NCBI GenBank assembly: GCA_009602735.1 | Contig: WELA01001729.1 | Location: 62,001 to 126,000 of the forward strand | DNA from: Mesotaenium endlicherianum | Lineage: Eukaryota | Direction of reading: 5' to 3' | Length of the DNA stretch: 64,000 nt | Shown: piece after piece, positions 2,356-59,705 of the stretch | Numbering within the stretch: position 1 is the first letter of the stretch | How the letters are laid out: every line of letters starts with the position of its first letter | Position numbers and translations under genes: made by a program | Notes under the pieces: model-generated | Told to the model about the DNA's origin: nothing | What the model saw: the letters and a program-made list of their open reading frames with translations, nothing else | Database searches by the model: none

Positions 2356-3753
2356 GGCTTCTGGGAGGCCTCTGGCTATTTCTCTAGCAGCCGTCCTGTC
2401 TGCCCTGTCTGACTGGGTCTCCGTGCCTGGAGATGGGTTCTGTCATTTGGCAGTTCCCAGCCAAGTGATATCCTCCTCCTCAACGAGTTGCTGTAGGGCC
2501 AACCCCGTCTTCTCCCTTACAAGGGATGTGGCAGGAGTCAGGATCACGGGAGGGCTAGTGTCCTCCTCGTTGCCTTCCTCCTCGTCTTCCTCTGACTCCT
2601 CCTCCTTTCCGTCCCCGGGTTCCTCTGAGACTTCTGGGGTCTCTTCTGTCAGCTGCTCCAATTCTTCCCGAGAAAAAGAATATCCCACTGACCTTCCCCT
2701 TTTTGGTGCTGGTGGGGGCTGCTGAGTCCGGACCGCATACAGGTCCTTTTCCCCCTGCTTGCTTGCCCATTTGGCATAAGCGTGCTTCCCTTTTGAGAAT
2801 GACTCTCGGGCCCTGCTTCTGTCCCCCTGCATTTTTTGGCTCATGCAGTCTCCGACTCCATCCAATCTTGGGTCCCAAGCCGCAATGTGAGGGTGCAATA
2901 CTATGTTCCCCTTTAGGTCTGTCATGAAATCCTCATCCGTCGCCCTGTCATTCTGCTGGTTCCTCATGTTGATGGTCATCCACCGCCAATCGGTGGGCTT
3001 CTGGAAGAAGGCAGGGTATGTCCTTTTCAGAATACAAGGGTACCAGTGCCCTGCAAAGTCTAGCTGACTAGTTTCCCTGGCCAAGAATTCCCAGCTCCTT
3101 CTCTCCACCTCATTATACATGGCCTTAAACCTGTTATGGGATGTAGAGTCCTTAAAGCTGTCCGCGTCCATGGGGATCATCCTGATGACCCTATCTTTCC
3201 CCCAGATACCCGGAATCGATACAGCTCCTTCCTCATTCACTTGCGCCATTGCCTTGGCCTCTCTGATCGTATATCCAACCATCCTGGCATAATCGTGGTA
3301 GAGGAGGACGCCTGTGCTGACCTTTGTATACTTGTCAAAATATTTGGATGTCTCCCCTTCCCTCTGCAGGATGTCCTTCTGCGACTCACTGCGACTGCTG
3401 TGGGCATACTTGAAGGCCTCCTCCAGTAGATCAAAGCCCTTGCCCAGCACTGTGTAGCGGTAGCTGGTGATTCTCCTCTGTTCTTCATTAGCCTGCTGCT
3501 TCCGCCTCTCCTCAGCTTGCCTCTCCTCCTCTGCCTTCTTGACTTCCAGTGCAGCTTATCTGTCCAGCTCTTCCTGCCTCAACCTGGCCTGTTCCTCCTC
3601 CTCCTTCTTCTTCTGTGCCTCGCGCTGTTGTTGGAGTCGTTGTGATTCCCGAGCGGAGATGGAGGATGACTCGATGTCTCCACGGAATTGCGAGTATTCT
3701 GCATGTGCCTCTTCCGCCCTTCTCTTCCTCTTGAGTTCCGACTTTTGAGTCAT
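2356..3753 (-). pseudogene. ORF3 type II (accessory ORF of unknown function), interrupted and 3'-truncated
   Basis: ORFs 3556-3762 and 2443-3450; shares motifs YNEVERRSWE, PTDWRWMT, WDPRL, FSKGKHA with the intact ORF at 35487-37163. Confidence 0.88.
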
Positions 3754-3754
3754 C

Positions 3755-3862
3755 CTGCTCAATCATAAACACAATGCAGTTAGTGAAGTCATGATATTTT
3801 GCTGCTACTGAGTGCCCTGTATGAAGAGGAACGCGATCGGGAGAGTTCCTAGTGTGAAATAC
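3755..3862 (-). other. Predicted 108 nt intron ending just upstream of the ORF3 type II ATG
   Basis: Minus strand reads CAAG|GTATTT ... CACTAAC ... GAGCAG|G ATG. Confidence 0.6.
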
Positions 3863-19870: not shown

Positions 19871-19884
19871 GCCAGGAGCCTACC
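19849..19884 (+). promoter_or_regulatory. Predicted -1 ribosomal frameshift signal of family B
   Basis: A_AAA_AAC in the gag frame (19849-19855); pol lies in the -1 frame; hairpin GGTAGGC/GCCTACC at 19866-19884. Confidence 0.75.
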
Positions 19885-23197: not shown

Positions 23198-23295
23198 NNN
23201 NNNNNNNNNNNNNNNNNNNNNNNNNNNNNNNNNNNNNNNNNNNNNNNNNNNNNNNNNNNNNNNNNNNNNNNNNNNNNNNNNNNNNNNNNNNNNNT

Positions 23296-23795
23296 TGTAG
23301 TGAAACAGATAGATAAAGTACTTAGTAAAACAGAATAGTTTATCTATTCAAGACAAGGATCTTTGAACACAAGTGATAGCTTCTTGAAAGTGAGATGGCT
23401 TCTTGAAAGTTAATATATTTCTGGATTTTGGCAAGTACAAGAGTGATTCTGGAATGTCTTTCTATGTTCAAGCTCTTGTTTATATACTTGCTACATAAGT
23501 AATTTCTAGGAAAGTGTATGTAGATGTGTTGGCACCCAACACATCCCAAAACTTGCCACCTCTTTCTAGAATGTACACATGTCCTTTTGACCTAAAAATG
23601 GCACATTTGACTTTTGCCACATGGAGTTCTTCTAAGTCTTTCCTCTAACTTCGAAAATGCCTTGGAAGGTTCAAAGGACATGAATAAAGTTATCAGAGTA
23701 CCTATTCACACTTGACTCCACACACTACTACTCCAAATATATTTGAAAACAATAAAATATATGCAAACTAATATATAATAACTCAAATCACTACA
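23296..23795 (-). repeat. Family B LTR in antisense orientation inside element B
   Basis: Reverse complement of 18051-18552; left flank hidden by N gap 23198-23294. Confidence 0.88.
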
Positions 23796-27492: not shown

Positions 27493-29178
27493 CGAACCTT
27501 CACGTGAGTTCGGCTGACGCGGAGTGCCGACTAGGTCGATTTACCTAGAAGTTTCGATTTAGCCTAGCGCGTCTAAGACTAGTAATGTCGATGCATGTAT
27601 GTGGACGTCAATTCGGCCCGACACGTCGGATTAGACTGATCTAGCTTACTCACGAATATTCTGGAAGGGACGATTTGACGAACACTTAGGAAAATCCGTA
27701 GCTTCGTCCTAGAGAGGAGCACTTTAGGCAAAAATTTATAAATAGGCATAACTTCTTTGCTTCTTATCAATTTTCACTTCTGTAAATTTCTACGGGTTTG
27801 TTATGACAAGGCGTTTCATCCTACATCATTTGTGAGCAGTTTTTTGCTACTCAATATGCGCCAAGAAGTGGAGAGAATGGTGCGAGTTGTTATGGGGAAC
27901 GCCGCTTTGACGAGTTTGGCACCGACACCTGTTGCGCCACCGATTCATGTTAACCCAGTGGTGCAACCAGTTATTCCACCCGCATCAAGAGTGCGTGCGC
28001 CTAAGCCTAAAGTTTATACTGGAGAGCGTGGATCGCCGCCTGTTCATCAATGGATTTTTGGAGTGAAGAAATTTATGGAGTACTCTGCGCTCACACCCGA
28101 CAGGCAAGTCGCCTTTGTCATAACTTTGCTGCAAAAGAGTGCTGGAGCTTGGTATGAACGAGAAGAGCAGCTGTCTAGAGTTCCTGCTACTGCTGATCAG
28201 CTCTTTGAAGGCTTGAAGAGGCAATTATAACCTATTGCACCCGAGGCTACCGCTCGAGATCTATTGGTGCGCCTTCGTTAACGAGGAAGCGTTCAGTATG
28301 TATCGCGCTTCAACGAGCTGGTGCTTCAACGTCCATCCATGCACGAGTTGGAGATGATGGACAATTTCAAGAGAGAACTCAAGTCAACTGTGGCCAAAGA
28401 AGTGGCGCTTAAGGACCCTACCAGTCTTGGAGAAATGATGGCATTGGCAACAAAGGTCGACGCTGTGGAGTATAGTCAGAGGCAGTGGGGCAGCCACAAT
28501 TTTGGAGGATATCGACACTTTGGATCTCAAGCGCCAAGCACGAGTGTTCAAGGTCCAAAACCTATGGAGTTGGGACTTGTGCAGCACCAGCGCAGGCAGC
28601 AGAATTTTAAGCCGAGAGGATCTTGCTATAATTGTGGCAAGCTTGGACATCTGGCTCGAGACTACCATGTGAAGACGAAGCAACCTCAACACCAGGAAAA
28701 AGGAGGACGCCAGTAAGTCGTTGTGGGGTGTCTATTGGCGTGAAGACGGAAACTCACAAGGAGGCTACCCCTAGGAGCATGCCGAGAAGCAAAGGACGAG
28801 ATATTGGCAAGCCTATCATCGTGGAAGGAGTGGTCGACAGCAACAAGGCGAATCCCTGTGCAGAAGCAATATGAGCCTAAGGAGGCAATTTTGGCGAATG
28901 GGCGGAGACTCAAGTGTGGTGCACTTACGGAAGCTATTCACGTGGAAGTAGCGGGGCACCGGCGTAAGGAAGTTATGGAGCGGGCAGAGTTGGGTCACCA
29001 TGAGGTAATATTGGGCCGACCATGGCTGAGAAAAGCCAACCCTCAAGTGCACTAGAGCACAAGACAAGTGAAGGTCCAAGGGCGTGATGGTCGAATGGAG
29101 ACAGCGAAACAGGTGGCGGTAGATACGACCACAAGTAACTGCCTTCTGTCGAGCCTACAAGTTAAGAAGCTATGCAGG
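27493..29178 (+). mobile_element. Family C element, 5' part (partial 5' LTR 27493-27854, degenerate gag 27856-28716, protease region)
   Basis: LTR fragment is the reverse complement of ~26873-27244; Gag motifs GPKPMELG and CYNCGKLGHLARD; ILGRPWL; ends at TSD GCAGG 29174-29178. Confidence 0.85.
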
Positions 29179-29928
29179 TGTAATGAATCAGTATATTAGT
29201 GGATATAATATTCATTTAAATCTAATAGTTAATTAAGATCAGCCTGCTGAACTTTAGTTAATAGTCAGTCTGCTGGACTTTACTTTAGTTAATAGTCAGT
29301 CTGCTGGACTTTACATAATTATCAGTTTAATGACTCGGCCGAACGCAACAGGCTGAAGTCAACTTAAGTCAGCTTGCTGACACATTCTTTGACAGCCAGC
29401 TGACTTCCGTGCTCGGTAGCAGCGAACTGCCTTGATATGCATCTAAGTACGACCTGCTAGATGAATGGCCAGATGACATCCCCATGATGGATGGCTATTC
29501 GGGATGATGGGAGATGGCGGTGGATTTGGTTAACCGAGGTCCTACCAACGTGGTTAACTCCCGGGTAGGCGGTGCCATCGCACTGACCGTTGAACAGTAA
29601 ACTCATTCCATGTACATATGCTAGGCATTGCTCTCGAGTTCGGCATTCGGAAACGAGGCCAACTCTCTTGTACAGCTTACTGAGAGAGATCTGAATCCAA
29701 GGCGAGAAGCCATTGATACGCACTGTCTTCTAACCTTGCTTATGTATGAGTTTACTGATTTGCATCATTGATGCTAGTTTACTCGCATTTGACTTACGAG
29801 TATTATTCCCTGCTAGTGTATTGTCCTTTGCCGTTTAACTAGTTAACGGAAATACCATAAAGATTACTTGCTGATATAAAGATCTTTATTAATTGTTAAT
29901 CGCCTATTTGGTAAGTCGATTCATTTCA
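29179..29928 (+). repeat. Family A LTR (750 bp) with a 31 bp tandem duplication
   Basis: TGTAATGAATC..GATTCATTTCA terminal inverted repeat; TTAGTTAATAGTCAGTCTGCTGGACTTTAC occurs twice. Confidence 0.95.
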
Positions 29929-29929
29929 G

Positions 29930-29941
29930 TGGTATCGGAGC
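29930..29941 (+). promoter_or_regulatory. PBS, tRNA-iMet type
   Basis: TGGTATCGGAGC. Confidence 0.92.
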
Positions 29942-29962
29942 AGTTATCACAGTCTTCTTTGT

Positions 29963-31441
29963 ATGGTAAGGACAAGGTCTCAAACTAGCAACTCCCGAGA
30001 CATGGAGAACCAGGATAACGAGAATGTCGAAAACCAGGCGGAAAGCCATGTAGCGGGAAACCGTACCTATTCGGAAGCAGTAGCGGATACTGCAGCTAGG
30101 GAGGCTGCAGATGAGGCAGCTGCTATTGCCTCAGTCGCAGCTCAGCAAGCTGAGGAGGAGATAGCCAGACTAGAAGCTGAACAAGTAGCAAAGGCCGCTG
30201 AAGATATACAAAGGAGGGAAGGACAGCCAGCTGACGAGCGCACTGTTGAAGAACTTATGGCATCAAGGGCCAATGTTCTGAACCCACCTCCTGCCGTACA
30301 ACTCAATGTACCCCTAGGTCAAATACGTGACCGGCTGAATGCGGCAGGAATTGCTGCTGCAGGAGCAAGAGGGATTGTTGAGGACACTACTCAGCGAGTA
30401 GATGCCAATGCTGCTGCTGCATTTGCTAATCTACCACCCCAAAATGTAGACTTGGGAGCATTGTTCGTTCAGATGCAGTCGCAAATGGCGACCATGTATC
30501 AGTCCCAGCAGGAGGACAAAAGAATCATAATGTCCCTACTCCGGGACAGAGACCAACTGGGGTCTCACACCACTAGTGGTGGTGGCCGAGGGCCTAGTAA
30601 GCCCAAGCCGAAACCTCCCCAGGACTATGATCCTGAGGGAAACAGAAAATATTACCTGATCAAGTTTCTCGCGGATGTTGAGCAGTGGCTGGAGAACTAC
30701 CCAGAACTGCAAGATTACGAGAAGGTCAGGCACACCGGTGCGCTACTGAAAGGCAGTGCCGCAGACTGGTGGCTTTACTGGAAGGAAGAGCGTAAGGCTC
30801 GGCAACTCGGTGACCCTACGTGGGTAGAGTTTGTCGAGAAGTTGCATGAGAAGTTTGATGTCATCAACCAGCAGGAGAAAGCTATCTATGCGATGATCTC
30901 CCTGACACTGAAGCAGACCACTTCAGTTGCTGAGTTTGCTCAAAAGTTCCAAGAGAACATGATGAAGCAGCCTGATTTGCCAGAACGGTATAGGATAGCA
31001 TACTTCAGGTATGGCTTGAAATCCGAGGTCTCTGGTCATTTTGCTGAGAAAAAGTATGAGAAACTGGCTGACTTGATCCAGGATGCTGACGCCTGGGATC
31101 AGCAGCAGTTCAATCACAAGCGCCAGAGTAACGCTTTGGTGTCTAAGATTGTCAAAAAGCCCCACGGTTCCTACAATGCAGTTGAAGGAGACCAGGCTGA
31201 GGATAATCAGGGTGATGAATATGAGTATGAGTACAATGCTATTCAGTCTAGAGGTAGAGGTGGTCCCTCTCGAGGTGGCTATGGAAGGGGTGGTGGTAGG
31301 ACTAAGCCGAGACCAGCCTCAGCAAAATCTACTTGCTACCATTGTCAGCAGAAAGGCCACTACAGAGAACAGTGTCCGGTCAAGCACCTGCCTAAGGTCG
31401 AGAGAAAAGACCAGCCTTTAAAAGACAGCAACAGTCAGTAA
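29963..31441 (+). CDS. gag: Family A Gag (492 aa)
   Basis: Intact ORF; capsid-like core, RGG-rich tract, [14 protein letters not shown] knuckle; protein identical to 53847-55325. Confidence 0.95.
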
Positions 31442-31464
31442 TCCAGTCTACTGACTGTGAGGAT
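31417..31464 (+). promoter_or_regulatory. Predicted -1 frameshift signal: slippery heptamer plus hairpin/pseudoknot
   Basis: T_TTA_AAA 31417-31423 in the gag frame; 7 nt spacer; stem ACAGTCAGTA/TACTGACTGT 31431-31458; loop ATCC can pair with GGAT 31461-31464. Confidence 0.82.
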
Positions 31465-34400
31465 GCTAGAGATAGTGAGTCGTCACTAGCTGCCCTCGTA
31501 GCAGGTATTATGGGTCCTGCTGAACTGGATTCACTATGCATGCCTGACAACCAGATAAAGGAGACCATCAGCAATATAGACGTCCAGAGAGTGCACACTC
31601 TGGATGCTCTTGTTCCACCTGATGTCCAACATTTCTTTGCTACGTCAGGAGAACAATGCGAAAGTCAGGAAAAGACAGTCCCCCCTATCCTACTGCATTG
31701 CATGATTGCAGGTAGGAAGGTGAGGGCATTTGTTGACGGAGGGGCGTCACATACTTTTATCCACAAGGACTTAGTTAAGCGGCTAAGGCTGCCTACTGTC
31801 ACCCAAGGGAATAGAAAAATATTCCTTGGAGATGCCTCAAGTATCCCGGGAGGAGTTATAACCAAGCCTATTGAGGTCCAGTTAGGTTCTGGCATTGCAG
31901 TTCTAACTGAAACGCTTACATTTGAGGTACTCAACACTGGCTTTTATGATCTCGTGCTAGGCAGGTCCTGGCTTAATAGACATCAAGCTGAAGTGTGTTG
32001 GAGCAGAGGTACAGTTAAAGTGAGAGGAGCCAGTGATGGGCAGACTGACTTGGCACCCACCAGTGCTCTTCCTCTTGTCCTGTGTGGATGGCAAATGAAG
32101 GAAAAGAAGAGGCTTCCAGAAGGATGCAAGTTGCTGAATGCAATGGAGTTCGTCAAAAGCTGGAACCAGAAGGAAGACAGAATGTTCTGTCTGCTGCTAA
32201 GAGAGGTACCTCCTCAACCTGAAGAAGTGGTTGAGAAAAAGGTACACCCTCCGGAACACCCTACTGCTGCAAACATTGTTGCTCAGTACACGGATGTGTT
32301 TAATATGCCTCCAGGACTACCCCCTAAGCGGGAAGTAGATCATAGGATTGATTTATTACCTGGTAGCCAGCCACCCTGGCAACGCACGTATGGCTTGTCT
32401 TATTTGGAGAGTGAGGAGTTGAAAACACAGATTGCAGAGCTGGAGGAAAATGGTTACATTTCTCCCAGTAAATCACCGTACGGCGCACCTATCCTATTTG
32501 TTAAGAAAAAGGATGGCAGTATGCGGATGTGTGTGGATTACAGAGCCCTGAACAGAATTACAGTAAAGAACAAGTATGCTTTACCCAGAATCGAGGACTT
32601 GCTTGATACCCTGTCTGGCGCTAAGGTGTTCAGTAAGATAGATCTCAAGAGTGGTTATCATCAAATCAGAATTGCTGAGGGGGATGAACACAAGACTGCT
32701 TTCCGCACACGTTATGGACACTTTGAGTTCAACGTGATGCCATTTGGACTGACTAATGCTCCTGCTACCTTTATGGGTGCTATGAATGACATTTTCAGGC
32801 CTTATTTGGATAAGTTTGTGCAAGTTTTCCTGAATGATGTTTTAATTTTCTCTAAAGATGAAGCTCAGCACACTTAAAGAAAGTGCTGGACACTCTGCGG
32901 AAAAATCACTTGTATGCAAAGATGAGCAAGTATGATTTCTTTAAGGAAAGTATTGAATTCTTAGGCCACGTTGTCAGTAAAGAGGGCATCAGTGTGGATC
33001 CTAAGAAAGTCCAGACCATAAGGGACTGGCCAGTACCACAGTCGGTCTCTGAAGTTAGATCCTTCCTCGGGTTGGCTAACTACTATAGGAGATTTATTGA
33101 GAATTATTCCACAAAGGCCAGTAAACTGACTGACCTTACTAAGAAAGACATCGGGTATGTGTGGGGGGAAGAGCAGCAGGCTGCCTTCCAGACCCTTAAA
33201 GATGCCCTTTGTTCTGCCCCAGTGCTAGCCGTGTATGACCCCAGCAAACCGGTGCAGGTGGTTACTGATGCCTCTGATTTTGCCATGGGTGCTATTTTGT
33301 TGCAGCCTGCTGACAAAACCACAAAGGATGGTAAGGTACGGCAGGAGTGGCATCCTGTGTTGTATGAGTCTATGAAATTTAATCCAGCGGAGATTAATTA
33401 CTCAGTGCATGATAAAGAGCTGCTAGCTATCATTCATGTACTCAAACAGTGGAGAGCATACTTACATGGTAAAGCTTTTAAGGTGATTACAGATCATCTA
33501 GCTCTGACCCACTTTCAGAAGAAGTCCAAGCTGTCGAGGAGGGAGAACCGCTGGAGCCAGATGCTGGAGCAGTTCCAAGTCCAGATCGACTACAAACCAG
33601 GGAAGTTGAATCCTGCTGATGCACTCTCTAGAAGACCTGACTTGCAAGAAAGGAACTTTAGTCAGCATACTGTAGATAAAGTCCTGTGTGCACTCACTTC
33701 ACTAAAGGTGAAAAAGTCCTTCCTTGAACAACTTAGGAAAGCCTACCTTTCTGACCCAACATTTGAGCCCAGCCCCACTACTGGTGTGTGTCGTGCTACT
33801 GCACTCGGGTATAAGCTCAAGGGAGGGGTCTGGGTGACTGAAACCACTTCAGGCAGGCTGAAGCTGGTCATTCCTAATAATTTGGAAATAAGGTCTCTCT
33901 TACTGAGTCAAGCTCATGACAGTCTCCTGGGTGGACATTTGGGGCAGGCCAAAACTGTTGGCAAACTGGCAAAACATTATCATTGGGAGGGGTTACCCCG
34001 GGAGGTCTTGAAATATGTCAAGTCCTGTGACCAGTGTCAGAGAAATAAGTCTCGGCACACACCACCCGGAGGTCTCTTGCAACCGCTACCCATCCCAGCG
34101 GGACGCTGGGAAACTATATCCATGGACTGGGTGGTCTCACTACCAAGAACTGCCAACGGGCATGATTCAATACTGGTAGTCGTGGATAAACTGACAAAAA
34201 TGGTCATTTTTATCCCCACAACTGTCAAAGTGACTGCACTCGAAACAGCGAGACAGTTTTACAACCATGTAGTATGCCAACATGGGCTCCCTTCTAATAT
34301 CATCTCAGACAGAGACTCAAAATTCACCTCTAAGTTCTGGAGAGCTTTAATGGGGTTAATGGGAGTCAAACAGCTGCTCAGCACAGCAAACCACCCTCAG

Positions 34401-35219
34401 ACTGATGGGCAGACTGAAAGAACTAACCGAGTTCTGCAGGAGGTGCTGAGAGCATATATTAACCAAAAACAAGATAATTGGGATGACCTGTTGCCTCAAA
34501 TTCAGTTTGCGGTCAACAGTGCGGTGCACGCGTCAACGGGCAAAACTCCTTTTGAACTCAGCCTGGGTAGAGTCCCTAAGTCTCCTCTAGATGTGCTAGG
34601 GGAATCTTTAACTCACCCTGAAGGGATTGACAACCCGGTCTCCCTCCAGTTAACTCAGGAGTTTGCTGACACCCTGTCAGAAGTCCAACGAAACTTGCAC
34701 ACGGCCCAAGAAAACCAACAAAAATACGCTAATCAACACCGTCGGGAACTGACATTTTCCAAGGGGGATTTAGTCAAACTGCATTCTCAGCACCTGTACC
34801 TCCCTGGTGTGGTCAAGAAAAAGCTTGGCCCTGTCTGGGTCGGTCCATATTCGGTGGTCCGTCGTGTCGGTCAGAATGCTTACAAACTGAACATGTCAGC
34901 TGAATACAAGGGGCACCCGGTCTTTAATGTCTCCTTCCTGGAACCGTACATCAAAGGTGATACACTGTTCACAGGTCGGTTCCCTGTCCAACCGGGACCG
35001 GTCCCCGCTGTCCGGGACGGCGACCCTGAGGAATATGAGGTCGATGAGATTTTAGACGCTCGCTCGGTCCGTCGATCGTCTAAATATGTCATGAAATACC
35101 TCATTCGATGGAAGGGTTACGATGCCTCTGGGGACACTTGGGAGTTTAAGGACCACTTGACCAATGCCAAAGGGGCGTTGACACGGTTCCACCTTCGGGC
35201 CGCTGGAGTCCCTCCATAA
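31423..35219 (+). pseudogene. pol: Family A Pol of A1, inactivated (RT catalytic FLDD changed to FLND; 7 bp frameshifting deletion at ~32874)
   Basis: ORFs 31510-32877 and 32883-35219; comparison with 50062-53778 shows loss of GAACACT. Confidence 0.93.
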
Positions 35220-35268
35220 CTGTCATTTCAGTTGACACGGGAAGGTGACAGGCGGTCCTGTCTCCATT

Positions 35269-35281
35269 TAAGTTGGAGGGG
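35269..35281 (+). promoter_or_regulatory. Internal PPT-like duplicate directly after pol
   Basis: TAAGTTGGAGGGG, same as the terminal PPT 37263-37275; preceded by hairpin GACAGG/CCTGTC 35247-35262. Confidence 0.7.
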
Positions 35282-35382
35282 AAAATATATGACAGTTAGT
35301 GAGCGAGAGCGATAAAAACACACTCATACGTTTATGTGTAGCGCATCGCAACTACGTCAACTTTTAGCAATCATCCTGTAAG

Positions 35383-35485
35383 GTAAACAGCAGCGAAGCC
35401 ACTATACTAAATACTAACATACTTCCTGCAATCCCTATGACAAAGGTCCATATCCTACTAACTTGTGCCCTGGTTACATGTGCAG
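35383..35485 (+). other. Predicted 103 nt intron ending just upstream of the ORF3 ATG
   Basis: AAG|GTAAAC donor, TACTAAC at 35456-35462, TGCAG|G ATG (ATG at 35487). Confidence 0.65.
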
Positions 35486-35486
35486 G

Positions 35487-37163
35487 ATGGCGCCCACCAC
35501 ACAAAAGGAGGACAGAAAGCGCAAGGCAGAAGAAGCCAGGAGGACAATGGAGCAATACCAGAAGGAGCTGGCGGCGACGTCCCTCACCAGGAGAGAACAA
35601 GAAAGGGTCCGCAAACAACAAGAGGCGGCAGAAGAGGCACAGAGGAAGAAGGATCAGGAAGCGGAAAACCTCAGGAAGGCTGAGGAGGAGAGACAGAAGA
35701 AACAGCAAGAAGAAGCGGCAGCGGCAGAAGAGGAGAAAAGAAAAAAGATTGAAGCGGACAGACAGAAGAGCTTGGCCACTTACAGGTATACTGTGGTGGG
35801 TGGCCAAAACTTCGATAACCTGAAGGAAGCATTGCTGGCAGCCCAGGAGATCAACAGGCTGGAACAGACAACACTGCTACAGAAGGAAGGAGCTACAGCA
35901 CTGGACAGGTACATCGAGACACACACCGGCGTGGTCCTTTACGAAGATTATGCTAAGATGGTGGGCTATACAGCAGAGCAGGCCCGGTATCTCGCAGATG
36001 ATTCAGAGGACAAGCCGGTCCCCATACCGGGAATAGTGGGAGATCAGAGACTCATCCGGATGGTGAGCATGCGGCCCGATAGCTTTAAGGATACGGTATT
36101 CTACCTCACACTCCTGCCAGCTTACAATGAAGTTGAGAGAAGGAGCTGGGAGTACTTGGCCAGGGAAGCAGGACAGCAGATGTTCTCTCCCCACTGGTTC
36201 CCGTGTAAACTGAGGAAGGCTGAGCACGGACCCCAGTACTACCAGCAGCCAACAGACTGGAGGTGGATGACCGTCACAAATAAGAAGCAGGAGTGTGACC
36301 GAGCCCAACCGGATGACTTCCACTATGGCCTAGACGGCTATCTCATCCTACCACCTCACATTGCCCCTTGGGACCCCAGGCTGAATGGATGCCTGAGCAA
36401 TATGAATGCAGAGACCAAGGAACATAGGAGGAGGGGAAGAGAGTACTTCTCTAAGGGAAAGCATGCCTTTGTCAAATGGGCAAAGAATGCAGGCCGGATA
36501 GATATCAGTAGGCTGAAGGCCAAGCAACCTCCAGCGCGCCCTAAGAAAGGGAGGTCGGTAGACTACTCCATGTCTACTAGGGAGCAGGACGACTTAGTGG
36601 ACGAGACCCCTACTCTCTCCGAGGAGGAGGATGAGGAGGATGAGGAAGAAGAACAAGGCAGAGGAGAAGCATCAGCAGCAGGTACTCAGGATACCCAGGG
36701 ACAGGCAGGGGCGCTTCCTAAAGAACCACGATCAGGTGTTTGGAATGTGATCCCCGTTATGGCGACAACTGGACCCCGCGCTCGCTCCCCCAGCCCACCT
36801 GCCCAAGCAGGGGAAGAAGCTGATCTGACTGTACTGGGCAGCAGACACAGACAGAAATCCCCAGAGGACAGGGGTGCCAGAAGAGGGACACGCGGGTGGG
36901 CCAGAGGTATGCCAGCCTCCCCCTCCGCTCAGGGGCATGTACCTCTAGCCAATGTATTTCAGCATCCTACTGGAATGCCTGTCTATGTGGGAATCAACAC
37001 CCAAGTGGTTGAAGAGCAGGCCACCATCCTCCGTTCTCCTCGAGGGCCAACTTTAGAGCAAACAGGGTTCTTTAGAAGGCCAGCTGACAGACCTAGAGGG
37101 CTGTCCAGATCTAGGTCCAGATCTCCGTCTCCTGACCCTGAAGCCCCAGGAACAACCCCTTAA
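35487..37163 (+). CDS. ORF3 type I, accessory protein of unknown function (558 aa from ATG 35487)
   Basis: Intact ORF between pol and PPT; charged coiled-coil-like N-terminus, aromatic-rich conserved core, acidic tract, RS/SP-rich tail; five homologous copies in the window. Confidence 0.9.
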   Translation: MAPTTQKEDRKRKAEEARRTMEQYQKELAATSLTRREQERVRKQQEAAEEAQRKKDQEAENLRKAEEERQKKQQEEAAAAEEEKRKKIEADRQKSLATYRYTVVGGQNFDNLKEALLAAQEINRLEQTTLLQKEGATALDRYIETHTGVVLYEDYAKMVGYTAEQARYLADDSEDKPVPIPGIVGDQRLIRMVSMRPDSFKDTVFYLTLLPAYNEVERRSWEYLAREAGQQMFSPHWFPCKLRKAEHGPQYYQQPTDWRWMTVTNKKQECDRAQPDDFHYGLDGYLILPPHIAPWDPRLNGCLSNMNAETKEHRRRGREYFSKGKHAFVKWAKNAGRIDISRLKAKQPPARPKKGRSVDYSMSTREQDDLVDETPTLSEEEDEEDEEEEQGRGEASAAGTQDTQGQAGALPKEPRSGVWNVIPVMATTGPRARSPSPPAQAGEEADLTVLGSRHRQKSPEDRGARRGTRGWARGMPASPSAQGHVPLANVFQHPTGMPVYVGINTQVVEEQATILRSPRGPTLEQTGFFRRPADRPRGLSRSRSRSPSPDPEAPGTTP

Positions 37164-37276
37164 GGTGACACGCTGAAGAGGCAGTCAGTAAGGGAGGCTG
37201 GTCAGGTTCAGTTCCCTTATTTAAAATTTCTGCAGTTTAATGTTGTCGAGGCGACAACAAGTTAAGTTGGAGGGAT

Positions 37277-38028
37277 TGTAATGAATCAGTATATTAGTGG
37301 ATATAATATTCATTTAAATATAATAGTTAATTAAGATCCGCCTGCTGAACTTTAGTTAATAGTCAGTCTGCTGGACTTTACTTTAGTTAATAGTCAGTCT
37401 GCTGAACTTTACATAATTATCAGTTTGCTGACTGAGTCGAAAGCAGCAGGCTCGAAGTCCATATAAGTCAGCTTGCTGACACATTCTTTGACAGCAAGCT
37501 GACTTCCGTACTCGGTAGCAGCAAACTACCCTGATATGCATCTAAGTTCGGTATGCTAGATGTATAGCCAGATGACATCCCTATGATGGATGGCTATTCG
37601 GGATGATGCGAGATGGCGGTGGATTTGGTTATCCGAGGTCCTACCAACGTGGTTAACTCCCGAATAGGCGGTGCCATCGCACCGACCGTTGAACAGTAAA
37701 CTCATTCCATGTACATACGCTAGGCATTGCTCTCGAGTTCGGCATTCGGACACGAGGCCAACTCTCTTGTACAGCTTACTGAGAGAGATCTGAATCCAAG
37801 GCGAGAAGCCATTGATACGCACTGTCTTCTAACCTTGCTTATGTATGAGTTTACTGATTTGCATTATTGATGCTAGTTTACTCTCATTTGACTGACGAGT
37901 ATTATTCACTGCTAGTGTGTTGTCCTTTGCCGTTAAACCAGTTAACGGAAAATACCATAAAGATTACTTGCTGATATAAAGATCTTTATTAATTATTAAT
38001 CGCCTTTTTAGTAACCGGATTCATTTCA
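37277..38028 (+). repeat. Family A LTR with chimeric 3' tip
   Basis: Follows the PPT; tip GCCTTTTTAGTAA resembles LTR 15876-16592; followed by GTATG. Confidence 0.93.
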
Positions 38029-38084
38029 GTATGTGTGGGGGGAAGAGCTGCAAGCAGCCTTCTAGACCCTTAAAGATGCCCTAT
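38029..38084 (+). pseudogene. 56 bp piece of host copy H pol trapped between two insertions
   Basis: GTATGTGTGGGGGGAAGAG..GATGCCCTAT encodes YVWGEE..DAL; begins with TSD GTATG and ends with TSD CCTAT. Confidence 0.88.
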
Positions 38085-38886
38085 CGAAATGAATCGACTT
38101 ACCAAATAGGCTATTAACAATTAATAAAGATCTTTATATCAGCAAGTAATCTTTATGGTATTTTCTGTTGATTAATTCAACAGCAAAAAATAATATACTA
38201 GCAGTGGACAATACTCGTAAGTCAAATGGAAGTAAATTAACATCAATAATACAATCAATAAACTCACATATAAGCAAGGCTAGGAGATAGTGCATATCAA
38301 TGGCTTCTCGCTCTCGATTCAGATCTCTCTTAGAAGCAGTACAGGAGAGTTGGCCTCGTTTCCGAATGCCGAACTTGAGAGCAATCCTAGCATATGTATA
38401 TGAAATGAGTTTACTGTTCAACGGCCAGTGCGATGGCACCACCTACCCGGGAGTTAACCACGTTGGTAGGACCTCGGTTGACCAAATCCACCGCCATCTC
38501 CCATTATCTCGAATTGCCATCCATCCGGAGGATGTCATTTGCCCATTTATCTAGCACACCACACTTAGATGCATATCTAGGCAGTTCGCTGCTACCGAAT
38601 ACGGAAGTCAGCTGGCTGTCAAAGAATGTGTCAGCAAGCTGACCTAAGTTGACGTCAGCCTGCTACTCCCGGCTGAGTCATTAAATTGATTATTTAATAG
38701 AGTCCACCAGACTCAATATTAACTAAAGTTCAGCAGGCTGAACTTATATAACTATTATATTTAAATGAATATTATATCAACCAATATACTGATTAATTAC
38801 AATCCCTCCAACTTAACGTGCTGTCGTCTTGACAACACTAACACTAGTAACAGCGTGCTGTCCCTTCCGTCCCCAGCCTCCTGCCA

Positions 38887-40545
38887 TTAGGAGGGAGATG
38901 TCCCTGGGGCCCTACACTCAAGAGAGCCAGACCTCGTCCTGTCTTGGGGTCTGCTGAAGCCTGAGGGATCCGCGTAGGGGCCTCGCAAAGTACGCAGTAA
39001 GTGGGCTGTTTCCTCGTGCACAGTCTGAAAATGAAGGGAGGCAGCCTTCTCCTGGGCAGCCCTCAAACTGACAGGTACATATACCAGCATCCCAGAAGGA
39101 TCTTGCATGACATGAGCCAAAGGCATATGCTCTCTCTGCGAGGGAGATGTTGGCAGGCCTTTGGCTATCTCCCTAGCAGCCCTCCTGTCTGCCCTGTCAG
39201 ACTGGGTCTCCGTGCCTGCAGATGGGCTCTGTCCTCTGGCAGTTCCCAGCCAAGTGATGTCCTCCTCTTCAGCGAGCTGTTGCAAGGCCATCCCAGTCTT
39301 CTCCCTTACAGGGGATGTGACAGGTGTCAGGACCACAGCGGAGCAAGTGTCCTCCTCCTCGCCTTCCTCTTCTTCTTCTTCTGACCCCTCCTCCTCTCCT
39401 TCCCCTGGTTCCTCTGAGACCGCTGGGGTCTCCTCTGTCAACTGCTCTAACTCTTCCCGAGAAAATGAATATTCCACTGACCATCCCCTTTTGGGTGCTG
39501 GTGGAGGCTGTTGAGTTCGGACCGCATATAGGTCCTTTTCTCCCTGCTTGCTTGCCCATTTGGCATAAGCATGCTTCCCTTTAGAGAATGACTCTCGGGC
39601 CCTGCTCCTGTCATCGTGCATTTTTTGGCTCATGCAGTCTCTCCCTCCATCCAGTCTTGGGTCCCAAGCTGCAATGTGAGGAGGCAACAGTATGTTCCCC
39701 TGTAGGCCTGTTAGGAAATCCTCATCCTTCGCCTTGTCATTCTGCTGGTCCCTCATATTAATGGTCATTCACCGCCAATCGGTGGGCTTCTGGAAAAAGG
39801 CAGGGTCTGTCCTTTTCAGAGTGCACGAGTACCAGTGCCTTGCAAAGTCCAGCTGACTGGTTTTCCTGGCCAAGAACTCCCAGCTTCTCCTCTCCACCTC
39901 ATTATATATGGCCTTGAACCGGTTATGGGGTGTAGAGTCCTTAAAGCTGTCCTCGTCCATGGGGATCATCCTGATGACCCTGTCCTTTCCCCAGGTACCC
40001 GGGATCGATACAACTCTTGTCTCATTCACTTGGGCCATTGCCTTGGCCTCTCTGACTGTATACCCTACCATCCTGGCATAATCGTGGTAGAGGAGTAGCC
40101 CTGTGCTGACCTCGATATACTTGTCAAAGTGTTCGAATGTCTCCCTTTCCCTCTGTAGGATGTTCTGCTGTGCCTCACTGCGACTTCTCTGGGCATACCT
40201 GAAGGCCTCCTCCAGTAGATGAAAGCCCTTGCCCAGTACTGTGTAGCGGTAGCTGTTGATTCTCCTCTGTTGTTCTTCTTCAGCCTGCTGCTTCTGCCTC
40301 TCCTCAACTTGCCTCTCCTCTTCCGCCTACTTGGCCTCCTCTGCAGCTTTTCTGTCCAGTTCTTCCTGCCTCAGCCTGGCTTGCTTCTCCTCCTCCTTCT
40401 TCTTCTGTGCCTCCCGCTGTTATTGGAGTCGTTGTGATTCCCAAGCGGAGATGAAGGATGATTTGATGTCGCCACGGAATTACAAGTATCCTGCATGTGC
40501 CTCTTCCGCTCTACTCTTCCTCTTAAGTTCCGACTTCTGGGTCAT
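38887..40545 (-). pseudogene. ORF3 type II, full span but with stop/frameshift
   Basis: ORFs 39769-40071 and 38887-39768 are separated by one TGA; ATG at 40545; C-terminal motif HMPLAHVMQDPSGMLVYV homologous to type I HVPLANVFQHPTGMPVYV. Confidence 0.88.
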
Positions 40546-40546: not shown

Positions 40547-40648
40547 CTGCTCAAACACAATGCAGTCAGAAGAGTCATGATACTTGGCCGCTATTGAGTG
40601 CCCGTGGTTAAGAAGAACGTGATAGGGAGAGTCCCTAGTGTGTAGTAC
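40547..40648 (-). other. Predicted 102 nt intron upstream of the ORF3 type II ATG
   Basis: Minus strand reads CAAG|GTACTA ... TTCTGAC ... GAGCAG|G ATG. Confidence 0.6.
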
Positions 40649-42683: not shown

Positions 42684-45600
42684 TGAAAGGGGCAGAGTGC
42701 CCTTGTGGAAGCGTAGTAACTCACGAGGAAAAGAACTAGTTGCAATCATACTAAAGAGTGCAGCGGTATATCACTAAGAAAACTTAGGAAAATTATCCAA
42801 CATTTTGAGTAGCAAGAAACTGCTCACAAATGAACTAGGATGATAGGCCTTGTCATTACAAACCCGTAGAAGTATACAGAAGTGACAACTGATAAAAAAC
42901 AAAGAAGTTATGCCTATTTATAATTTTCTGCCTAAATGCTCCTCTCTAAGTGGAAGCTACGGATTTTCCTAAGTGTTCGTCAAATCGTCCCTTCCAGAAT
43001 ATTCGTGAGTAAGCCAGATCAGTCTAATCTGACGTGTCGGGCCAAATTGACGTCCACATACATGCATCGACATTACTAGAATATTATATCTTAGACGCGC
43101 TAGGCTAAACCGAAACTTCTAGGTAAATCGACCTAGTCGGCACTCCGCGTCAGCCAAACTTACGTGAAGGTTCGAGTTCATTCTAACGGGCCAAATCGCT
43201 CGACGCTGTCGGTCAATCCGACGGTCGCGCTCACCGCGAACTAAGGACAGTCGTCAACCGACCTCAAAACTAATTAAACCTCAGTAATCCGTAACTCTCT
43301 CAATACTTGACCAAATTCAACGAACTTTATATCAAAATGACCACAAATATGCACTCTCCACTACTGTACAATCAAAACATACTTTCATGAAACTCAAAAA
43401 TGCACTTTATAAACCTATGACCTTTTTACATCATCCCCCTCCTCAAGATGCGACGTCCTCGACGCATTCTGCAAATAACGTCTCAACTTACTCTTACAAT
43501 GAGTCAAGTTGGCCTCTGGCTCCCAAGTGTTGTCGTCCGCATGGTAGCCTTTCCACTTGACCAAATACGCTTGGACAAATCGTTGACCTCGCTTGACTCG
43601 TCGATCGCCGACAATTGCCTCCACTTCATACTCCAATACATCATCGATCTCGACCGGTGGTGGCTGTGTAGGTAGTCGTCCAGGATGTCCTTCATTCGGG
43701 TCAACGTATGGTTGCAAACAACTGACATGGAACACATCATAGATACGCCAGCCTGAAGGAAGTTCCAACTTGTAGGCCACTGGATTCACCTGCTTGAGCA
43801 CTACAAAGGGACCTGTAAACCGTGCCCGCAGTTTCCTCTTGCCTGTGAAAGGTAGGTTCTCTGTGGACAAGAGTACTTTGTCGCCCACATGGAATGTCAC
43901 TTCCCTCCTGTGCTTGTTAGCATGCTTGACCTGCTCTTCCTGTGCCTTCCGAATACACGTCTTCGCCATATTCCAAGTCTTGGCCATCTGCTCCATAAAA
44001 GCTTGTGTAATAGGAAACTGAGTCTCCTTGGCCTTCTCCAACAAGATGTTCCCTGGATGATATACTTCTCTTCCATAAACCATAGCGAATGGTGACTGCT
44101 TGGTCGATCCCTGCATGCTGTTGTTGTAGGCAAACATCCTGGCAGCTTCCTGTCCCACTCTGAAGGGTCTTCTATAGTGAAACTCTTGAGCACCTCTTGC
44201 AAAGTTCTGTTGAGCCTCTCACGGTGTCCGTCTGTCTGAGCATGATAGGAAGTGCTCATACTCAGCTTGGTCCCCATCAAAGTAAACAATGACCGCCAAA
44301 AGTTGCTAGTAAACCTTGGATCCCGATTTGAAACAATCACCTTCGGCAACCCATGTAGCCTGAAAATATGATCAAAGAATAGCCGTGCCACATCTATTGC
44401 CGTAGAAGTCTCCTTCATGGGAATGAAGTGAGCCATCTTGCTGAGTCTGTCAGACACAACCCATCCTGCATCGTGCCCTTGACCACTGATTGGTAACGAT
44501 GTGATGAAGTCCATAGCAATCTGCTCCCAAGGATACTCTGGAATAGGCAGGGGTCGCAATGNGAATGTACCTCCCTTCTTTTGATTGGGTGTCTTATTCC
44601 GCTGGCACGCATCGCAACTCCTGATCCACTCCTCGATGTCCTTGTCCATATTTCTCCAATAGTACTCCCGCTTCAGCACACTTGCCGTCTTCTCGCTTCC
44701 AAAGTGTCCTGCATATAAGCAATCGTGATGCTCCGCAAGTAGTAAGTCTCGTAGCTCCTTGATGTCAGGTACCACCACTCTCTTGGAATCACCATAATAC
44801 CATATGCCGTCCTTCTTCTGCATACTTGAAATGAATCGACTTATCAAATAGGCAATTAACAATTAATAAAGATCTTTATATCAGCAAGTAATCTTTATGG
44901 TATTTTTCGTTAACTGTTTTAACGGCAAAAGGACAACGCACTAGCAGTGAATAATACTCGCCAGTCAAATGAGAGTAAACTAGCATCAATAATGCAAATC
45001 AGTAAACTCATACATAAGCAAGGTTAGAAGACAGTGCGTAACAATGGCTTCTCGCCTTGGATTCAGATCTCTCTCAGTAAGCTGTACCAAAGAGTTGGCC
45101 TCGTTTCCGAATGCCGAACTCGAGAGCAATGCCTAGCGTATGTACATGGAATGAGTTTACTGTTCAACGGTCAGTGCGATGGCACCGCCTACCCGGGAGT
45201 TAACCACGATGGTAGGACCTCGGTTAACCAAATCCACCGCCATCTCCCATCATCCCGAATAGCCATCCATCATAGGGATGTCATCTGGCCATTCATCTAG
45301 CATATCCTACTTAGGTGTATGTCAAGGCAGTTCGCTGCTACCGAGTGCGGAGGTCAGCTGGCTGTCAAAGAATTGGTCAGCAAGCTGACTTATATAAACT
45401 TCAGCCTGCTGCTTCCGGCTGAGTCATTAAACTGATAAATATGTAAAGTCCAGCAGACTAAATATTAACTAAAGTTCAGTAGGCTGAACTTAATTAACTA
45501 TTATATTTAAACGAATATTATATCTACTAATATACTGATTCTTTACAATACTCGAGTTGGACTCAGCTGCTCCACCATCAGCAAACTCTGGGTCCTCCTC

Positions 45601-47285: not shown

Positions 47286-48117
47286 TGAAATGAATCGCCT
47301 TACCAAATAGGCGATTAACAATTAATAAAGATCTTTATATCAGCAAGTAATCTTATAGTATTTCCGTTAATTAGTTAAACGGCAAAGGACAATACACTAG
47401 CAGGGAATAATACTCGTAAGTCAAATGCGAGTAAACTAGCATCAATGATGCAAATCAGTAAACTCATACATAAGCAAGGTTAGAAGACAGTGCGTATCAA
47501 TGGCTTCTCGCCTTGGATTCAGAGTTCTCTCAGTAAGCTGTACAAGAGAGTTGGCCTCGTTTCCGAATGCCGAACTCGAGAGCAATGCCTAGCATATGTA
47601 CATGGAATGAGTTTACTGTTCAACGGTCAGTGCGATGGCACCGCCTACCCGGGAGTTAACCACGTTGGTAGGACCTCGGTTAATCAAATCCACCGCCCAT
47701 CTCTTATCATCCCGAATAGCCATCCATCATGGGGATGTCATCTGGCCATTCATCTAGCGGGTCGTACTTAGATGCATATCAAGGCAGTTCGCTGCTACCG
47801 AGCACGGAAGTCAGCTGGCTGTCAAAGAATGTGTCAGCAAGCTGACTTAAGTTGACTTCAGCCTGTTGCTTTCGGCCGAGGCATTCAACTGATAATTATG
47901 TAAAGTCCAGCAGACTGATTATTAACTAAAGTTCAGCAGGCTGAACTGAATTAACTATTAGATTTAAATGAATATTATATCCACTAATATACTGATTCAT
48001 TACAATCCCTCCAACTTAACATGTTGTCGCCTCGACAACATTAAACTGCAGAAATTTTAAATAAGGGAGCTGAACCTGACCAGCCTTCCTTACTGACTGC
48101 CTCTTCAGCGTGTCACC

Positions 48118-49794
48118 TTAAGGGGTTGTTCCTGGGGCTTCAGGGTCAGGAGACGGAGAGCTGGACCTAGATCTGGACAGCCCTCTAGGTCTGTCAGCTG
48201 GCCTTCTAAAGAACCCTGTTTGCTCTAAAGTTGGCCCTCGAGGAGAACGGAGGATGGTGGCCTGCTCTTCAACTATTTGGGTGTTGATTCCCACATAGAC
48301 AGGCATTCCAGTAGGATGCTGAAATACATTGGCTAGAGGTACATGCCCCTGAGCGGAGGGGGAGGCTGGCATACTTCTGGCCCACCCGCGTGTCTCTCTT
48401 CCGGCACCCCTGTCCTCTGGGGATTTCTGTCTGTGTCTGCTGCCCAGTACCGTCAGATCAGCTTCTTCCCCTGCTTGGGCAGGTGGGCTGGGGGAGCGAG
48501 CGCGGGGTCCAGTTGTCGCCATAACGGGGATCACATTCCACACACCTGATCGTGGTTCTTTAGGAAGTGCCACTGCCTGTCCCTGGGTATCCTGAGTACC
48601 TGCTGCTGATGCTTCTCCTCTGCCTTGTTCTTCTTCCTCATCCTCCTCATCCTCCTCCTCGGAGAGAGTAGGGGTCTCGTCCACTAAGTCGTCCTGCTCC
48701 CTAGTAGACATGGAGTAGTCTACCGACCTCCCTTTCTTAGGGCGCGCTGGAGGTTGCTTGGCCTTCAGCCTACTGATATCTATCCGGCCTGCATTCTTTG
48801 CCCATTTGACAAAGGCATGCTTTCCCTTAGAGAAGTACTCTCTTCCCCTCCTCCTATGTTCCTTGGTCTCTGCATTCATATTGCTCAGGCATCCATTCAG
48901 CCTGGGGTCCCAAGGGGCAATGTGAGGTGGTAGGATGAGATAGCCGTCTAGGCCATAGTGGAAGTCATCCGGTTGGGCTCGGTCACACTCCTGCTTCTTA
49001 TTTGTGACGGTCATCCACCTCCAGTCTGTTGGCTGCTGGTAGTACTGGGGTCCGTGCTCAGCCTTCCTCAGTTTACACGGGAACCAGTGGGGAGAGAACA
49101 TCTGCTGTCCTGCTTCCCTGGCCAAGTACTCCCAGCTCCTTCTCTCAACTTCATTGTAAGCTGGCAGGAGTGTGAGGTAGAATACCGTATCCTTATAGCT
49201 ATCGGGCCGCAAACTCACCATCCGGATGAGTCTCTGATCTCCCACTATTCTCGGTATGGGGACCGGCTTGTCCTCTGAATCATCTGCGAGATACCGGGCC
49301 TGCTCTGCTGTATAGCCCACCATCTTAGCATAATCTTCGTAAAGGACCACGCCGGTGTGTGTCTCGATGTACCTGTCCAGTGCTGTAGCTCCTTCCTTCT
49401 GTAGCAGTGTTGTCTGTTCCAGCCTGTTGATCTCCTGGGCTGCCAGCAATGCTTCCTTCAGGTTATCGAAGTTTTGGCCACCCACCACAGTATACCTGTA
49501 AGTGGCCAAGCTCTTCTGCCTGTCCGCTTCAATCTTTTTTCTTTTCTCCTCGTCTGCCGCTGCCGCTTCTTCTTGCTGTTTCTTCTGTCTCTCCTCCTCA
49601 GCCTTCCTGAGGTTTTCCGCTTCCTGATTCTTCTTCCTCTGTGCCTCTTCTGCCGCCTCTTGTTGCTTGCGGACCCTTTCTTGTTCTCTCCTGGTGAGGG
49701 ACGTCGCCGCCAGCTCCTTCTGGTATTGCTCCATTGTCCTCCTGGCTTCTTCTGCCTTGCGCTTTCTGTCCTCCTTTTGTGTGGTGGGCGCCAT
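48118..49794 (-). CDS. ORF3 type I (558 aa), intact
   Basis: 11 aa differences from 35487-37163 by manual comparison; predicted intron 49796-49898 upstream. Confidence 0.9.
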   Translation of the reverse strand: MAPTTQKEDRKRKAEEARRTMEQYQKELAATSLTRREQERVRKQQEAAEEAQRKKNQEAENLRKAEEERQKKQQEEAAAADEEKRKKIEADRQKSLATYRYTVVGGQNFDNLKEALLAAQEINRLEQTTLLQKEGATALDRYIETHTGVVLYEDYAKMVGYTAEQARYLADDSEDKPVPIPRIVGDQRLIRMVSLRPDSYKDTVFYLTLLPAYNEVERRSWEYLAREAGQQMFSPHWFPCKLRKAEHGPQYYQQPTDWRWMTVTNKKQECDRAQPDDFHYGLDGYLILPPHIAPWDPRLNGCLSNMNAETKEHRRRGREYFSKGKHAFVKWAKNAGRIDISRLKAKQPPARPKKGRSVDYSMSTREQDDLVDETPTLSEEEDEEDEEEEQGRGEASAAGTQDTQGQAVALPKEPRSGVWNVIPVMATTGPRARSPSPPAQAGEEADLTVLGSRHRQKSPEDRGAGRETRGWARSMPASPSAQGHVPLANVFQHPTGMPVYVGINTQIVEEQATILRSPRGPTLEQTGFFRRPADRPRGLSRSRSSSPSPDPEAPGTTP

Positions 49795-58261: not shown

Positions 58262-59705
58262 GCTGCGGAGGAAGAAAGAAAGAAGGAGGAAGCTAAAAGG
58301 CAGAAGAGCGTGGCCACTTACAGATATACTGTGGTGGATGGCCAAATCTTTGATAATGTGAAGGAGACACTACTGGCAGTCCAGGATATTAATCGAATTG
58401 CCAAGCAAACAGTGTTGCGGAAGCAGGGAGCTGAAGCTCGGGATAGGTATATTGAGACACGCACTGGGGTTGTCCTCTACAAAGATTATGCCAAGATGGT
58501 GGGGTATATAGCGGAGCAGGCGCGGTTCTTTGCTGATAACTTGGAAGATAAGCCAGTACCAGTACCTGGCATAGTGGAGGATCAGTGGCTCATCGAAATG
58601 GTGAGCATGCAGCCCGATGGCTTTAACGATGTCTTGTTTTCCCAGACGTTGCTGCCAGCCTACAATGAAGTTGAGAGAAGGAGCTGGGAGTACTTGGCCA
58701 AGAAAACACGACAGCAGATGTTCTCTCCCCATGTTCCCTTGTAAGCTGAAAAATGCTAAACATGGGCCACAATACTACCAGCAACCTACAAACTGGAGGT
58801 GGATGATCGTCCCTAACAGGAAGCAGCACTGTGAACGGGCCCACCCGGATGATTTCCACTATGGGCTGGACGGTTAGCTTATCCTGCCACCTCACATTGC
58901 TCTTTGGGACTTCAGGCTTAATGGATGCCCGAGTAACATGAATGAGAAAACCAAGGAGAACAAGAGGAGAGGACAGGACTACTTCTCTAAGGGGAAGTAT
59001 GCCTTTGTTAAATGGGCAAAGAATGCAGGCTGGATAGATATCAGCAAGTTGAAGGCCAAGCAACCCCCAGCTCATCCTAACAAAGGGGGGTCACTAGATT
59101 TCTCCATGTCTACCAGGGAGCAGGATAACTTGGTAGATGAGACCCCTACCCTCTCTGAGGAGAAGGATGAGGAGGATGAGGAGGATGAGGAAGCGGAACA
59201 GGGCAGGGGAGAAGCATAAACCTCTGGAGCTCAAGAGATCCGGGGACAGGCAGAGGCAGGAACTCCTAGGGGGCCAAGAGCAGGAGGAAGGACTGTGACT
59301 CCTACTGTGGAGACAACGGTACCTCGAGCTCGATCTCCCGGCCCACCTGCCCAAGCAAAGGAAGAGGCAGAGCTGACTGTACTTGGTAGCAGAGAGAGGC
59401 AGAAATCCCCAGAGGACAGAGCTCCTAGAAGTGGAACTCGCGGTGTGGCCAGAGGTATGCTAGCCACCCCCTCCAGTCAGGGATGTGTGCCCCTTGCCAA
59501 TGTATTTTAGCATCCTACTGGTTTGCCTGTCTATGTGGGAATCAACATCCAGGAGGTTGAAGAGCAGGCTGCAATCCTCCGTTCCCCTTGTGGCCCCACT
59601 TTAGAGCAGACAGGGTTCTTCAGGAGGCCAGTCGACAGAACTAGAGGGATGTCCAGGTCTAGGTCCAGATCTCAGTCCCCTGATCCTGGAGCCCCAAGAA
59701 CATCA
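58262..59705 (+). pseudogene. Degenerate ORF3 type I of copy H (N-terminus deleted)
   Basis: ORFs 58310-58744, 58938-59219, 59295-59510, 59523-59768 are colinear with ORF3 type I; ATCCTACTAACTTG retained at ~58249-58262. Confidence 0.88.

Follow-up and report, generated by a model that had tools for sequence, protein, structure and literature searches.

A cassette-borne extra gene behind pol in a family of chromodomain Ty3 retrotransposons

Extra genes of LTR retrotransposons and the element carrying ORF3

Extra open reading frames (ORFs) are common in LTR retrotransposons, almost none of them having a known function. Those found in the sense direction between pol and the 3' LTR form a described category, aORF-3S (PMC7264820); in the available part of the REXdb account (PMC6317226), where this kind is named eORF-3'F, extra ORFs as a whole are reported for 3372 Ty3 elements and fall into 314 unrelated groups. 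Among chromoviruses, the same part records extra ORFs on the 3' side and in sense for 18% of Tekay elements, and for none of the other six rows, which include Tcn1, Chlamyvir, Galadriel, Reina, CRM and unclassified chromoviruses. An earlier note on the DNA described here had regarded extra ORFs as foreign to the standard chromovirus layout, a view which, in that form, the Tekay figure does not support.

Three element-encoded proteins offer a functional comparison. Grande, a Retand-type element of maize, carries gene 23, a 3' internal accessory gene driven by a promoter of its own, whose product is nuclear (PMC7264820). CERV, from the LTR retrotransposon Cer1 of C. elegans, is a novel nuclear protein made from a spliced message and needed for genomic RNA export, according to the accessible text of PMC10309623. 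VANC, of the VANDAL DNA transposons, is an anti-silencing factor, structurally related to MAIN and dicot-specific in the excerpt available (PMC13547354). Chromovirus-like elements of algae that bear additional methyltransferase domains are mentioned in the accessible portion of a preprint (bioRxiv 10.64898/2026.05.21.726589).

The window, i.e. the whole 64-kb stretch of DNA analysed, is a tangle of Ty3 retrotransposon copies, five of which, here called A to E, keep the pol end of the family under study. The features are reported in Table 1. The family has LTRs, a primer-binding site (PBS), a polypurine tract (PPT) and 5-bp target-site duplications, the latter cross-paired between copies; the PBS of copy A presumably matches the 3' end of plant initiator tRNA-Met. 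Pol features the order PR-RT-RH-IN, followed at its C-terminus by a chromodomain (Pfam Chromo, E 1e-8). In copy B every ORF is open. A T TTA AAA heptamer is found in the three copies inspected (3/3), and the segment with this heptamer and a hairpin is likely to be a -1 ribosomal frameshift site between gag and pol.

As read from its sequence, the chromodomain retains the aromatic-cage residues; such chromodomains are reported, in the available parts of PMC3350952 and PMC6317226, from algae, mosses, lycophytes, fungi and animals, not from seed plants. This feature and the 5-bp target duplications are shared with the group I chromoviruses (Tcn1, Chlamyvir, Selaginella Galadriel-like), and gag and pol frames overlap, as in most Tcn1. 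The family differs from Tcn1, 83% of which self-prime (PMC6317226, same part), by its tRNA-type PBS, and from the whole group by the presence of ORF3 and by its RT-RH, whose long branch stays unplaced and falls outside the seed-plant clade of 12 rows. This placement comes from a quick tree of 63 rows, made solely of the query, one other family of the window and 61 of 120 hits selected by label and coverage. The best relatives found by the RT search are 57-61% identical.

ORF3 lies in the sense direction between pol and the 3' PPT, 267 nt past pol in copy A. It follows all of the five pol ends of the family (5/5), two copies being intact and three broken, as the earlier note had described for every copy keeping its 3' region; no further matches are found by tblastn of the 64-kb window. 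Copy E contains three stops and one frameshift, and its first ~79 residues, start codon and splice acceptor are gone. The remaining five frames across ORF3 of copy A contain 9-30 stops each, and an antisense gene was discarded. No host gene is recognised among the listed ORFs of the window.

With at least 250 codons, sense orientation, location between pol and the 3' LTR and separation from the polyprotein, ORF3 corresponds to eORF-3'F, as defined in the available part of PMC6317226. It resembles aORF-3S/eORF-3'F frames in position, orientation, presence in all family copies, lack of database matches and occurrence of a splice acceptor just before the start. It differs in having no transmembrane segment, in its local 103-nt leader intron, where Bagy2 has a long env-type splice, and in its carrier, endowed with a group I chromodomain and overlapping gag and pol. 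Sense 3' extra ORFs are thus known as a category: what is unusual here is the cassette anatomy of a conserved orphan gene.

Table 1. Features of the family within the window
Feature	Position	Strand	Remarks
5' LTR, copy A	29179..29928	+	750 nt, TG...CA
Primer-binding site, tRNA-type	29930..29941	+	from sequence
gag	29963..31441	+	Ty3 capsid, zinc knuckle
Predicted -1 frameshift signal	31417..31458	+	T TTA AAA in gag frame; 12-bp hairpin 7 nt downstream
pol, copy A	31510..35219	+	PR-RT-RH-IN-chromodomain; split by a frameshift near 32870
Cassette leader	35220..35382	+	TGACA cluster, upstream PPT copy (35270-35280), putative promoter, first exon
Leader intron, copy A	35383..35485	+	103 nt, GT-AG, CTAAC branch point; ends one base before ATG
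ORF3 type I, copy A	35487..37163	+	intact, 558 aa
ORF3 protein layout, copy A			charged N-terminus 1-95; aromatic-rich core 96-362; then acidic run and low-complexity tail
3' polypurine tract	37264..37276	+	
3' LTR, copy A	37277..38028	+	
pol, copy B	53778-50062	-	unbroken; the only whole pol
ORF3 type I, copy B	48118..49794	-	intact, 558 aa, 98% identical to A
ORF3 type I, divergent copy E	58262..59705	+	76% aa identity to A; broken
ORF3 type II, copy D	38887..40545	-	4 stops
Predicted leader intron, copy D	40547..40648	-	102 nt; same place relative to ATG
ORF3 type II, copy C	2362..3753	-	2 stops; 3' end lost, cut by gag fragment
Predicted leader intron, copy C	3755..3862	-	108 nt
LTRs in cross-pairing set	15876-16592, 29179-29928, 37277-38028, 38086-38801, 47286-48004, 55360-56110		

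Composition, conservation and exchange of ORF3

The N-terminus of ORF3 is highly charged (K, R, D or E at 51 of 95 positions), while the core contains 30 aromatics in 267 residues; basic clusters are located in the N-terminus and at residues 353-356. No transmembrane or signal stretch is present in copies A, C and D, where the best 19-residue hydropathy is 0.70-0.90, in agreement with the non-env protein proposed by the earlier note. The charged N-terminus, basic clusters and acidic run listed there are also present, as are, in the alignments, the motif blocks common to both types; the SRSRSRSPSP tail is limited to type I, with 10 RS/SR dipeptides vs 2 in type II copy D. Invariant positions across the aligned copies are 96/267 in the core, 27/95 in the N-terminus and 58/196 in the tail: judged from these counts, constraint spans the whole length, the core being only slightly more invariant, and is not specific to the core, as had been suggested. 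Invariant core residues include His236, Cys240, His291 and 18 aromatics; a metal site is possible.

The statement that ORF3 contains no recognisable domain still holds. Pfam shows no match (7 proteins and 8 alignment members scanned), nor, within the eORF domains covered by Pfam, any Retand, Ogre or Athila domain. A profile search against 1.84 billion representatives returned a single hit (E 1e-5), aligned over six stretches to a protein which, from its sequence, reads as a fibronectin-III-like repeat protein, and the hit was rejected. The best E value against PDB sequences is 0.76; none of the pattern matches was confirmed among metagenome contigs (0/131 and 0/212) or viral contigs (0/57), and no sequence match to MAIN or VANC was found, the fold comparison being limited by poor models. 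In a word-index search with residues 95-365, 0 of 4116 candidates were confirmed, a weak blank, as the gag control gave likewise 0 of 1758. Since the gag control is blank, and the RT relatives are so distant, the libraries appear to lack the lineage, and the blank for ORF3 is to be read with this qualification. Literature coverage, mostly outside subscription journals, included no description of the family or of the ORF3 protein.

AlphaFold models of ORF3 are unusable (pLDDT 39 and 34), although both show mostly helical secondary structure. Foldseek searches with these low-pLDDT models, uninformative on the fold, found nothing at E 0.001 in PDB and viral libraries; a VIA search with them, likewise uninformative, reached a best Z of 4.2. 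The best score in a Protein Atlas feature search, 0.79, is at chance level. Two filamentous-virus coat families (Flexi_CP and Poty_coat, 0.76-0.77) came up in it, with scores also at chance level and not repeated with the type II core; Pfam shows no match to them, and the fold search covered them with a poor model.

Selection on ORF3 was evaluated by dN/dS (Nei-Gojobori), where post-insertion decay raises all values. For the core, dN/dS is 0.17 for A-E (95% interval 0.11-0.25) and 0.25 for C-D (0.16-0.37); between types it is 0.21 (A-C) and 0.25 (A-D), with dS near saturation, far from the value near 1 which the earlier note had set against its own reading. Tail and N-terminus, where estimable, show 0.22-0.33, while the A-B value (0.54, interval 0.20-1.76) stems from too few differences for inference. 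As the 3' part of pol features 0.19-0.33 in the same divergent pairs, ORF3 is, by these estimates, under purifying selection as strong as that on pol. Of the proposed selection on a folded core of about 260 residues, the selection is therefore supported (0.17-0.25), while the folding is not, given the pLDDT values above.

ORF3 is very probably a functional, element-borne gene. It is highly improbable that it is a recently captured host gene, or a fragment of another element, which merely hitchhikes. Such an origin would fit with libraries in which the host organism is under-represented, as indicated by the blank gag control; yet a dN/dS near 0.2 on element lineages, together with a dS near 2 between types, indicates long selection inside the element, and a long-conserved host gene would probably show up among 1.84 billion representatives. 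The CpG ratio of ORF3 (0.32-0.43) is low, as it is in gag and pol (0.40-0.48). A capture both recent and functionless is largely refuted.

The two ORF3 types are far apart: type I of copy A and type II of copies C and D share 45-46% protein identity over the whole ORF and 48-49% over the core. The elements carrying them are close: overall, DNA likeness is 50-60% for the two ORF3 types, and 82-96% for pol and LTR. In 200-nt bins, DNA identity between A and D drops from 86-94% in pol to 47-60% along the spacer and ORF3, and is again 79-90% in the LTR; for A and C, pol bins show 90-96% and cassette bins 48-60%. Pol dS is 0.19 (A-C), 0.29 (A-D) and 0.46 (A-E), while in the ORF3 core the A-C and A-D values are both about 2 and that of A-E is 0.77. 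The inner branch of the four-copy tree measures 1.02 in ORF3 vs 0.014 in pol, tip branches being similar. The large distance in ORF3, contrasted with the closeness of pol and LTR, indicates that ORF3 is an exchanged cassette. The pol quartet favours another topology without rejecting that of ORF3 (AU p 0.09), and exchange is therefore argued from depth and not from topology.

A copy of the PPT is found 50 nt past the pol stop in all five copies (5/5), doubled in C, D and E, and the drop in A-D identity starts in the bin containing it: in the alignments, the left edge of the cassette is this second PPT copy. Most simply, recombination brought one of the ORF3 types in from a sister family of greater age, the putative route being a template switch at the PPT they share; a precedent is provided by Athila, whose distant families recombine (PMC2410132, available part). 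The upstream PPT may be the former 3' end of an ORF3-less ancestor, or a second plus-strand start.

Both types are also present in three out of three other contig runs (X3, X6, X4). Their persistence, and the depth of the two alleles on a near-identical backbone, could be explained by a selfish or competitive module, acting in copy-number control, sister exclusion or toxin-like addiction, with alleles under frequency-dependent selection. This is very unlikely: the cassette contains no partner ORF besides ORF3, and a single recombination with an older sister family suffices, with no need for balancing selection.

Exchange bears also on a role in the particle or in the pre-integration complex, where ORF3 could help with entry into the nucleus, with the choice of target sites alongside the chromodomain, or with movement from cell to cell. 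ORF3 occupies the position of env, its N-terminal charged helix and basic clusters are suitable, and two coat families emerged in the feature search. Their scores, however, are those expected by chance and were not reproduced when the type II core was used; there is no membrane segment, and nothing was found in viral or PDB fold libraries, searched with a poor model. Alleles as divergent as these, swapping on one Gag-Pol, would fit a tight structural partner less well. A particle role is accordingly unlikely.

Leader signals and traces of expression

The ATG of copies A, B, C and D is preceded by a branch-point motif, by CAG and by one G, and a GT donor is located 103, 103, 108 and 102 nt upstream, respectively. 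The intron interiors are barely alignable, yet the splice signals are kept. In run X1 a contig joint skips exactly positions 35383-35485 (GT..AG), with a depth of 473. It is the deepest in a listing of 15 joints, the remaining 14 having 91-287, and 114 further joints fall outside this listing. The joint is contained in one contig, with a 23-letter short side and three letters of microhomology; the acceptor had been noted before the read results were seen, while the donor coordinate was fixed afterwards. The kind of run X1, perhaps from the same sample as the window, is a guess (DNA), and the joint represents either a transcript after splicing or a copy made without the intron by reverse transcription. 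No intron-skipping joint is found in the three other contig runs (0/3), for types I and II alike; these runs carry the intron-bearing form.

Three poly(A) runs, with the same species label as X1, were sampled to 6-12% each: of 580 reads matching copy A, mostly diverged LTR and pol fragments, none falls on ORF3. At 86% likeness, one poly(A) run shows none on type I and a few on type II. The silence of ORF3 is thus observed in runs in which the element as a whole is hardly expressed. Reads of run X23 on type II, near 39224-39417, were not counted, being low-complexity matches to the acidic tract with loose ends.

A perfect donor-like motif, GGTAAGT, is found at 29908-29917, at the U5 end of most LTR copies, and no joint is seen to start from there. 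Only the local donor is seen in use, at a scant RNA coverage at which an env-type long splice from a donor in the 5' leader might go unseen.

The intron suggests an alternative role for ORF3, that of an RNA-handling factor, like HIV Rev or CERV, by which intron-containing genomic RNA would escape splicing and exit the nucleus. The genomic RNA must indeed retain an efficient-looking intron, the skipped form being rare in X1; Arg/Lys-rich segments and the type I RS tail are compatible with RNA handling, and CERV is a precedent in an LTR retrotransposon (PMC10309623, text available in part). The tail loses weight as an argument, most of the RS dipeptides being absent from type II (2 vs 10). No RNA-binding family is matched in Pfam, and a protein solving the problem of its own intron brings no net gain, unless it has a further role. 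CERV itself has exons in common with Gag and contains H, M and G domains (same source and part), whereas ORF3 follows pol and has nothing in common with Gag. On balance, this role is rather unlikely.

In the stretch from the pol stop to the leader, the four non-redundant copies A, C, D and E have TGACA counts of 4, 4, 6 and 5, respectively, against 0.6-1.3 expected from 500 shuffles (p 0.002-0.022, generous values, as the motif was chosen by eye after viewing the sequence). It is somewhat enriched inside ORF3 of copy D too. Plant KNOX/BELL sites, and a Chlamydomonas zygote element, have TGAC as their core, as reported in the available part of PMC4889651; the exact ZYRE motif given there, YGACAYGAC, is absent by eye from four leaders, the TGAC core alone being common. 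A link of the cluster to KNOX/BELL factors or to the zygote element is a lead only. The LTRs are likewise TGAC-rich.

A tentative role and the surrounding copies

The reading we prefer, tentatively, is that ORF3 is a nuclear trans-acting booster of the expression of its own element, made from a short spliced message. The cassette, enclosed by two PPT copies, would be swappable among elements; an internal promoter at the TGACA cluster would drive a separate message, which would lose the 103-nt leader intron before the ATG. Basic clusters would send the protein to the nucleus, where it might act on element chromatin or transcription, as a transactivator or an anti-silencing factor. The precedent of Grande gene 23, the lack of a hydrophobic segment and the basic clusters support the nuclear booster, although gene 23 is antisense, belongs to a non-chromovirus and shows no detected sequence link to ORF3.

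A narrower version appears quite unlikely: an allele-specific counter-silencing module, made of a new protein family, flanked by PPTs, exchanged among sister elements and switched on at fertilisation, through the TGACA cluster, by KNOX/BELL-type homeodomain factors of the host, with reactivation in the zygote. VANC would be an analogue in function only, and its MAIN-related sequence finds no match in ORF3; if counter-silencing were true, ORF3 would be a retrotransposon counterpart of VANC, based on an unrelated protein. Natural controls are available in the family, namely two alleles 45% identical, one Gag-Pol, a copy (B) with all frames open, a defined intron and a candidate promoter, so that the role of such extra genes is directly testable. 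The cassette exchange, the second PPT, the leader intron and the TGACA cluster are additions to the earlier note.

The 5-base target duplications pair LTRs across apparent elements: the left of 29179 pairs with the right of the minus-strand LTR ending at 47286, the left of 15876 with the right of 38028, and the left of 56110 with the right of 38086. A and B have 5' LTRs with 99.3% likeness; from its own 3' LTR each of these differs by 4-8%. The cross-pairing indicates recombination among copies with inversion, or an assembly error; because of it, A and B are not plainly independent insertions. The short spacer 38029-38085 separates two head-to-head LTRs; in runs X3, X6 and X4 it is flanked by non-LTR sequence, which may represent an empty site or another repeat copy, and the family may be insertion-polymorphic.

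Run X1 yielded 47,079 contigs on 9 kb (29100-38100), vs 123-193 from the three other runs on 5.8 kb, and many of its joints link an LTR end to an internal site. The excess may reflect a large copy burst or extrachromosomal DNA, depth not being a copy number.

Other Ty3 families or fragments occupy 18590-23316 (+), 43415-47262 (-) and 27742-29055 (+), none with a relative of ORF3. A tandem duplication of about 31 nt in U3 (29226-29310, 37324-37408) is present in three type I LTRs and in none of the other five. A solo LTR of the family, at 44827-45547, features its own five-base target duplication and is located inside the pol of another Ty3 family.
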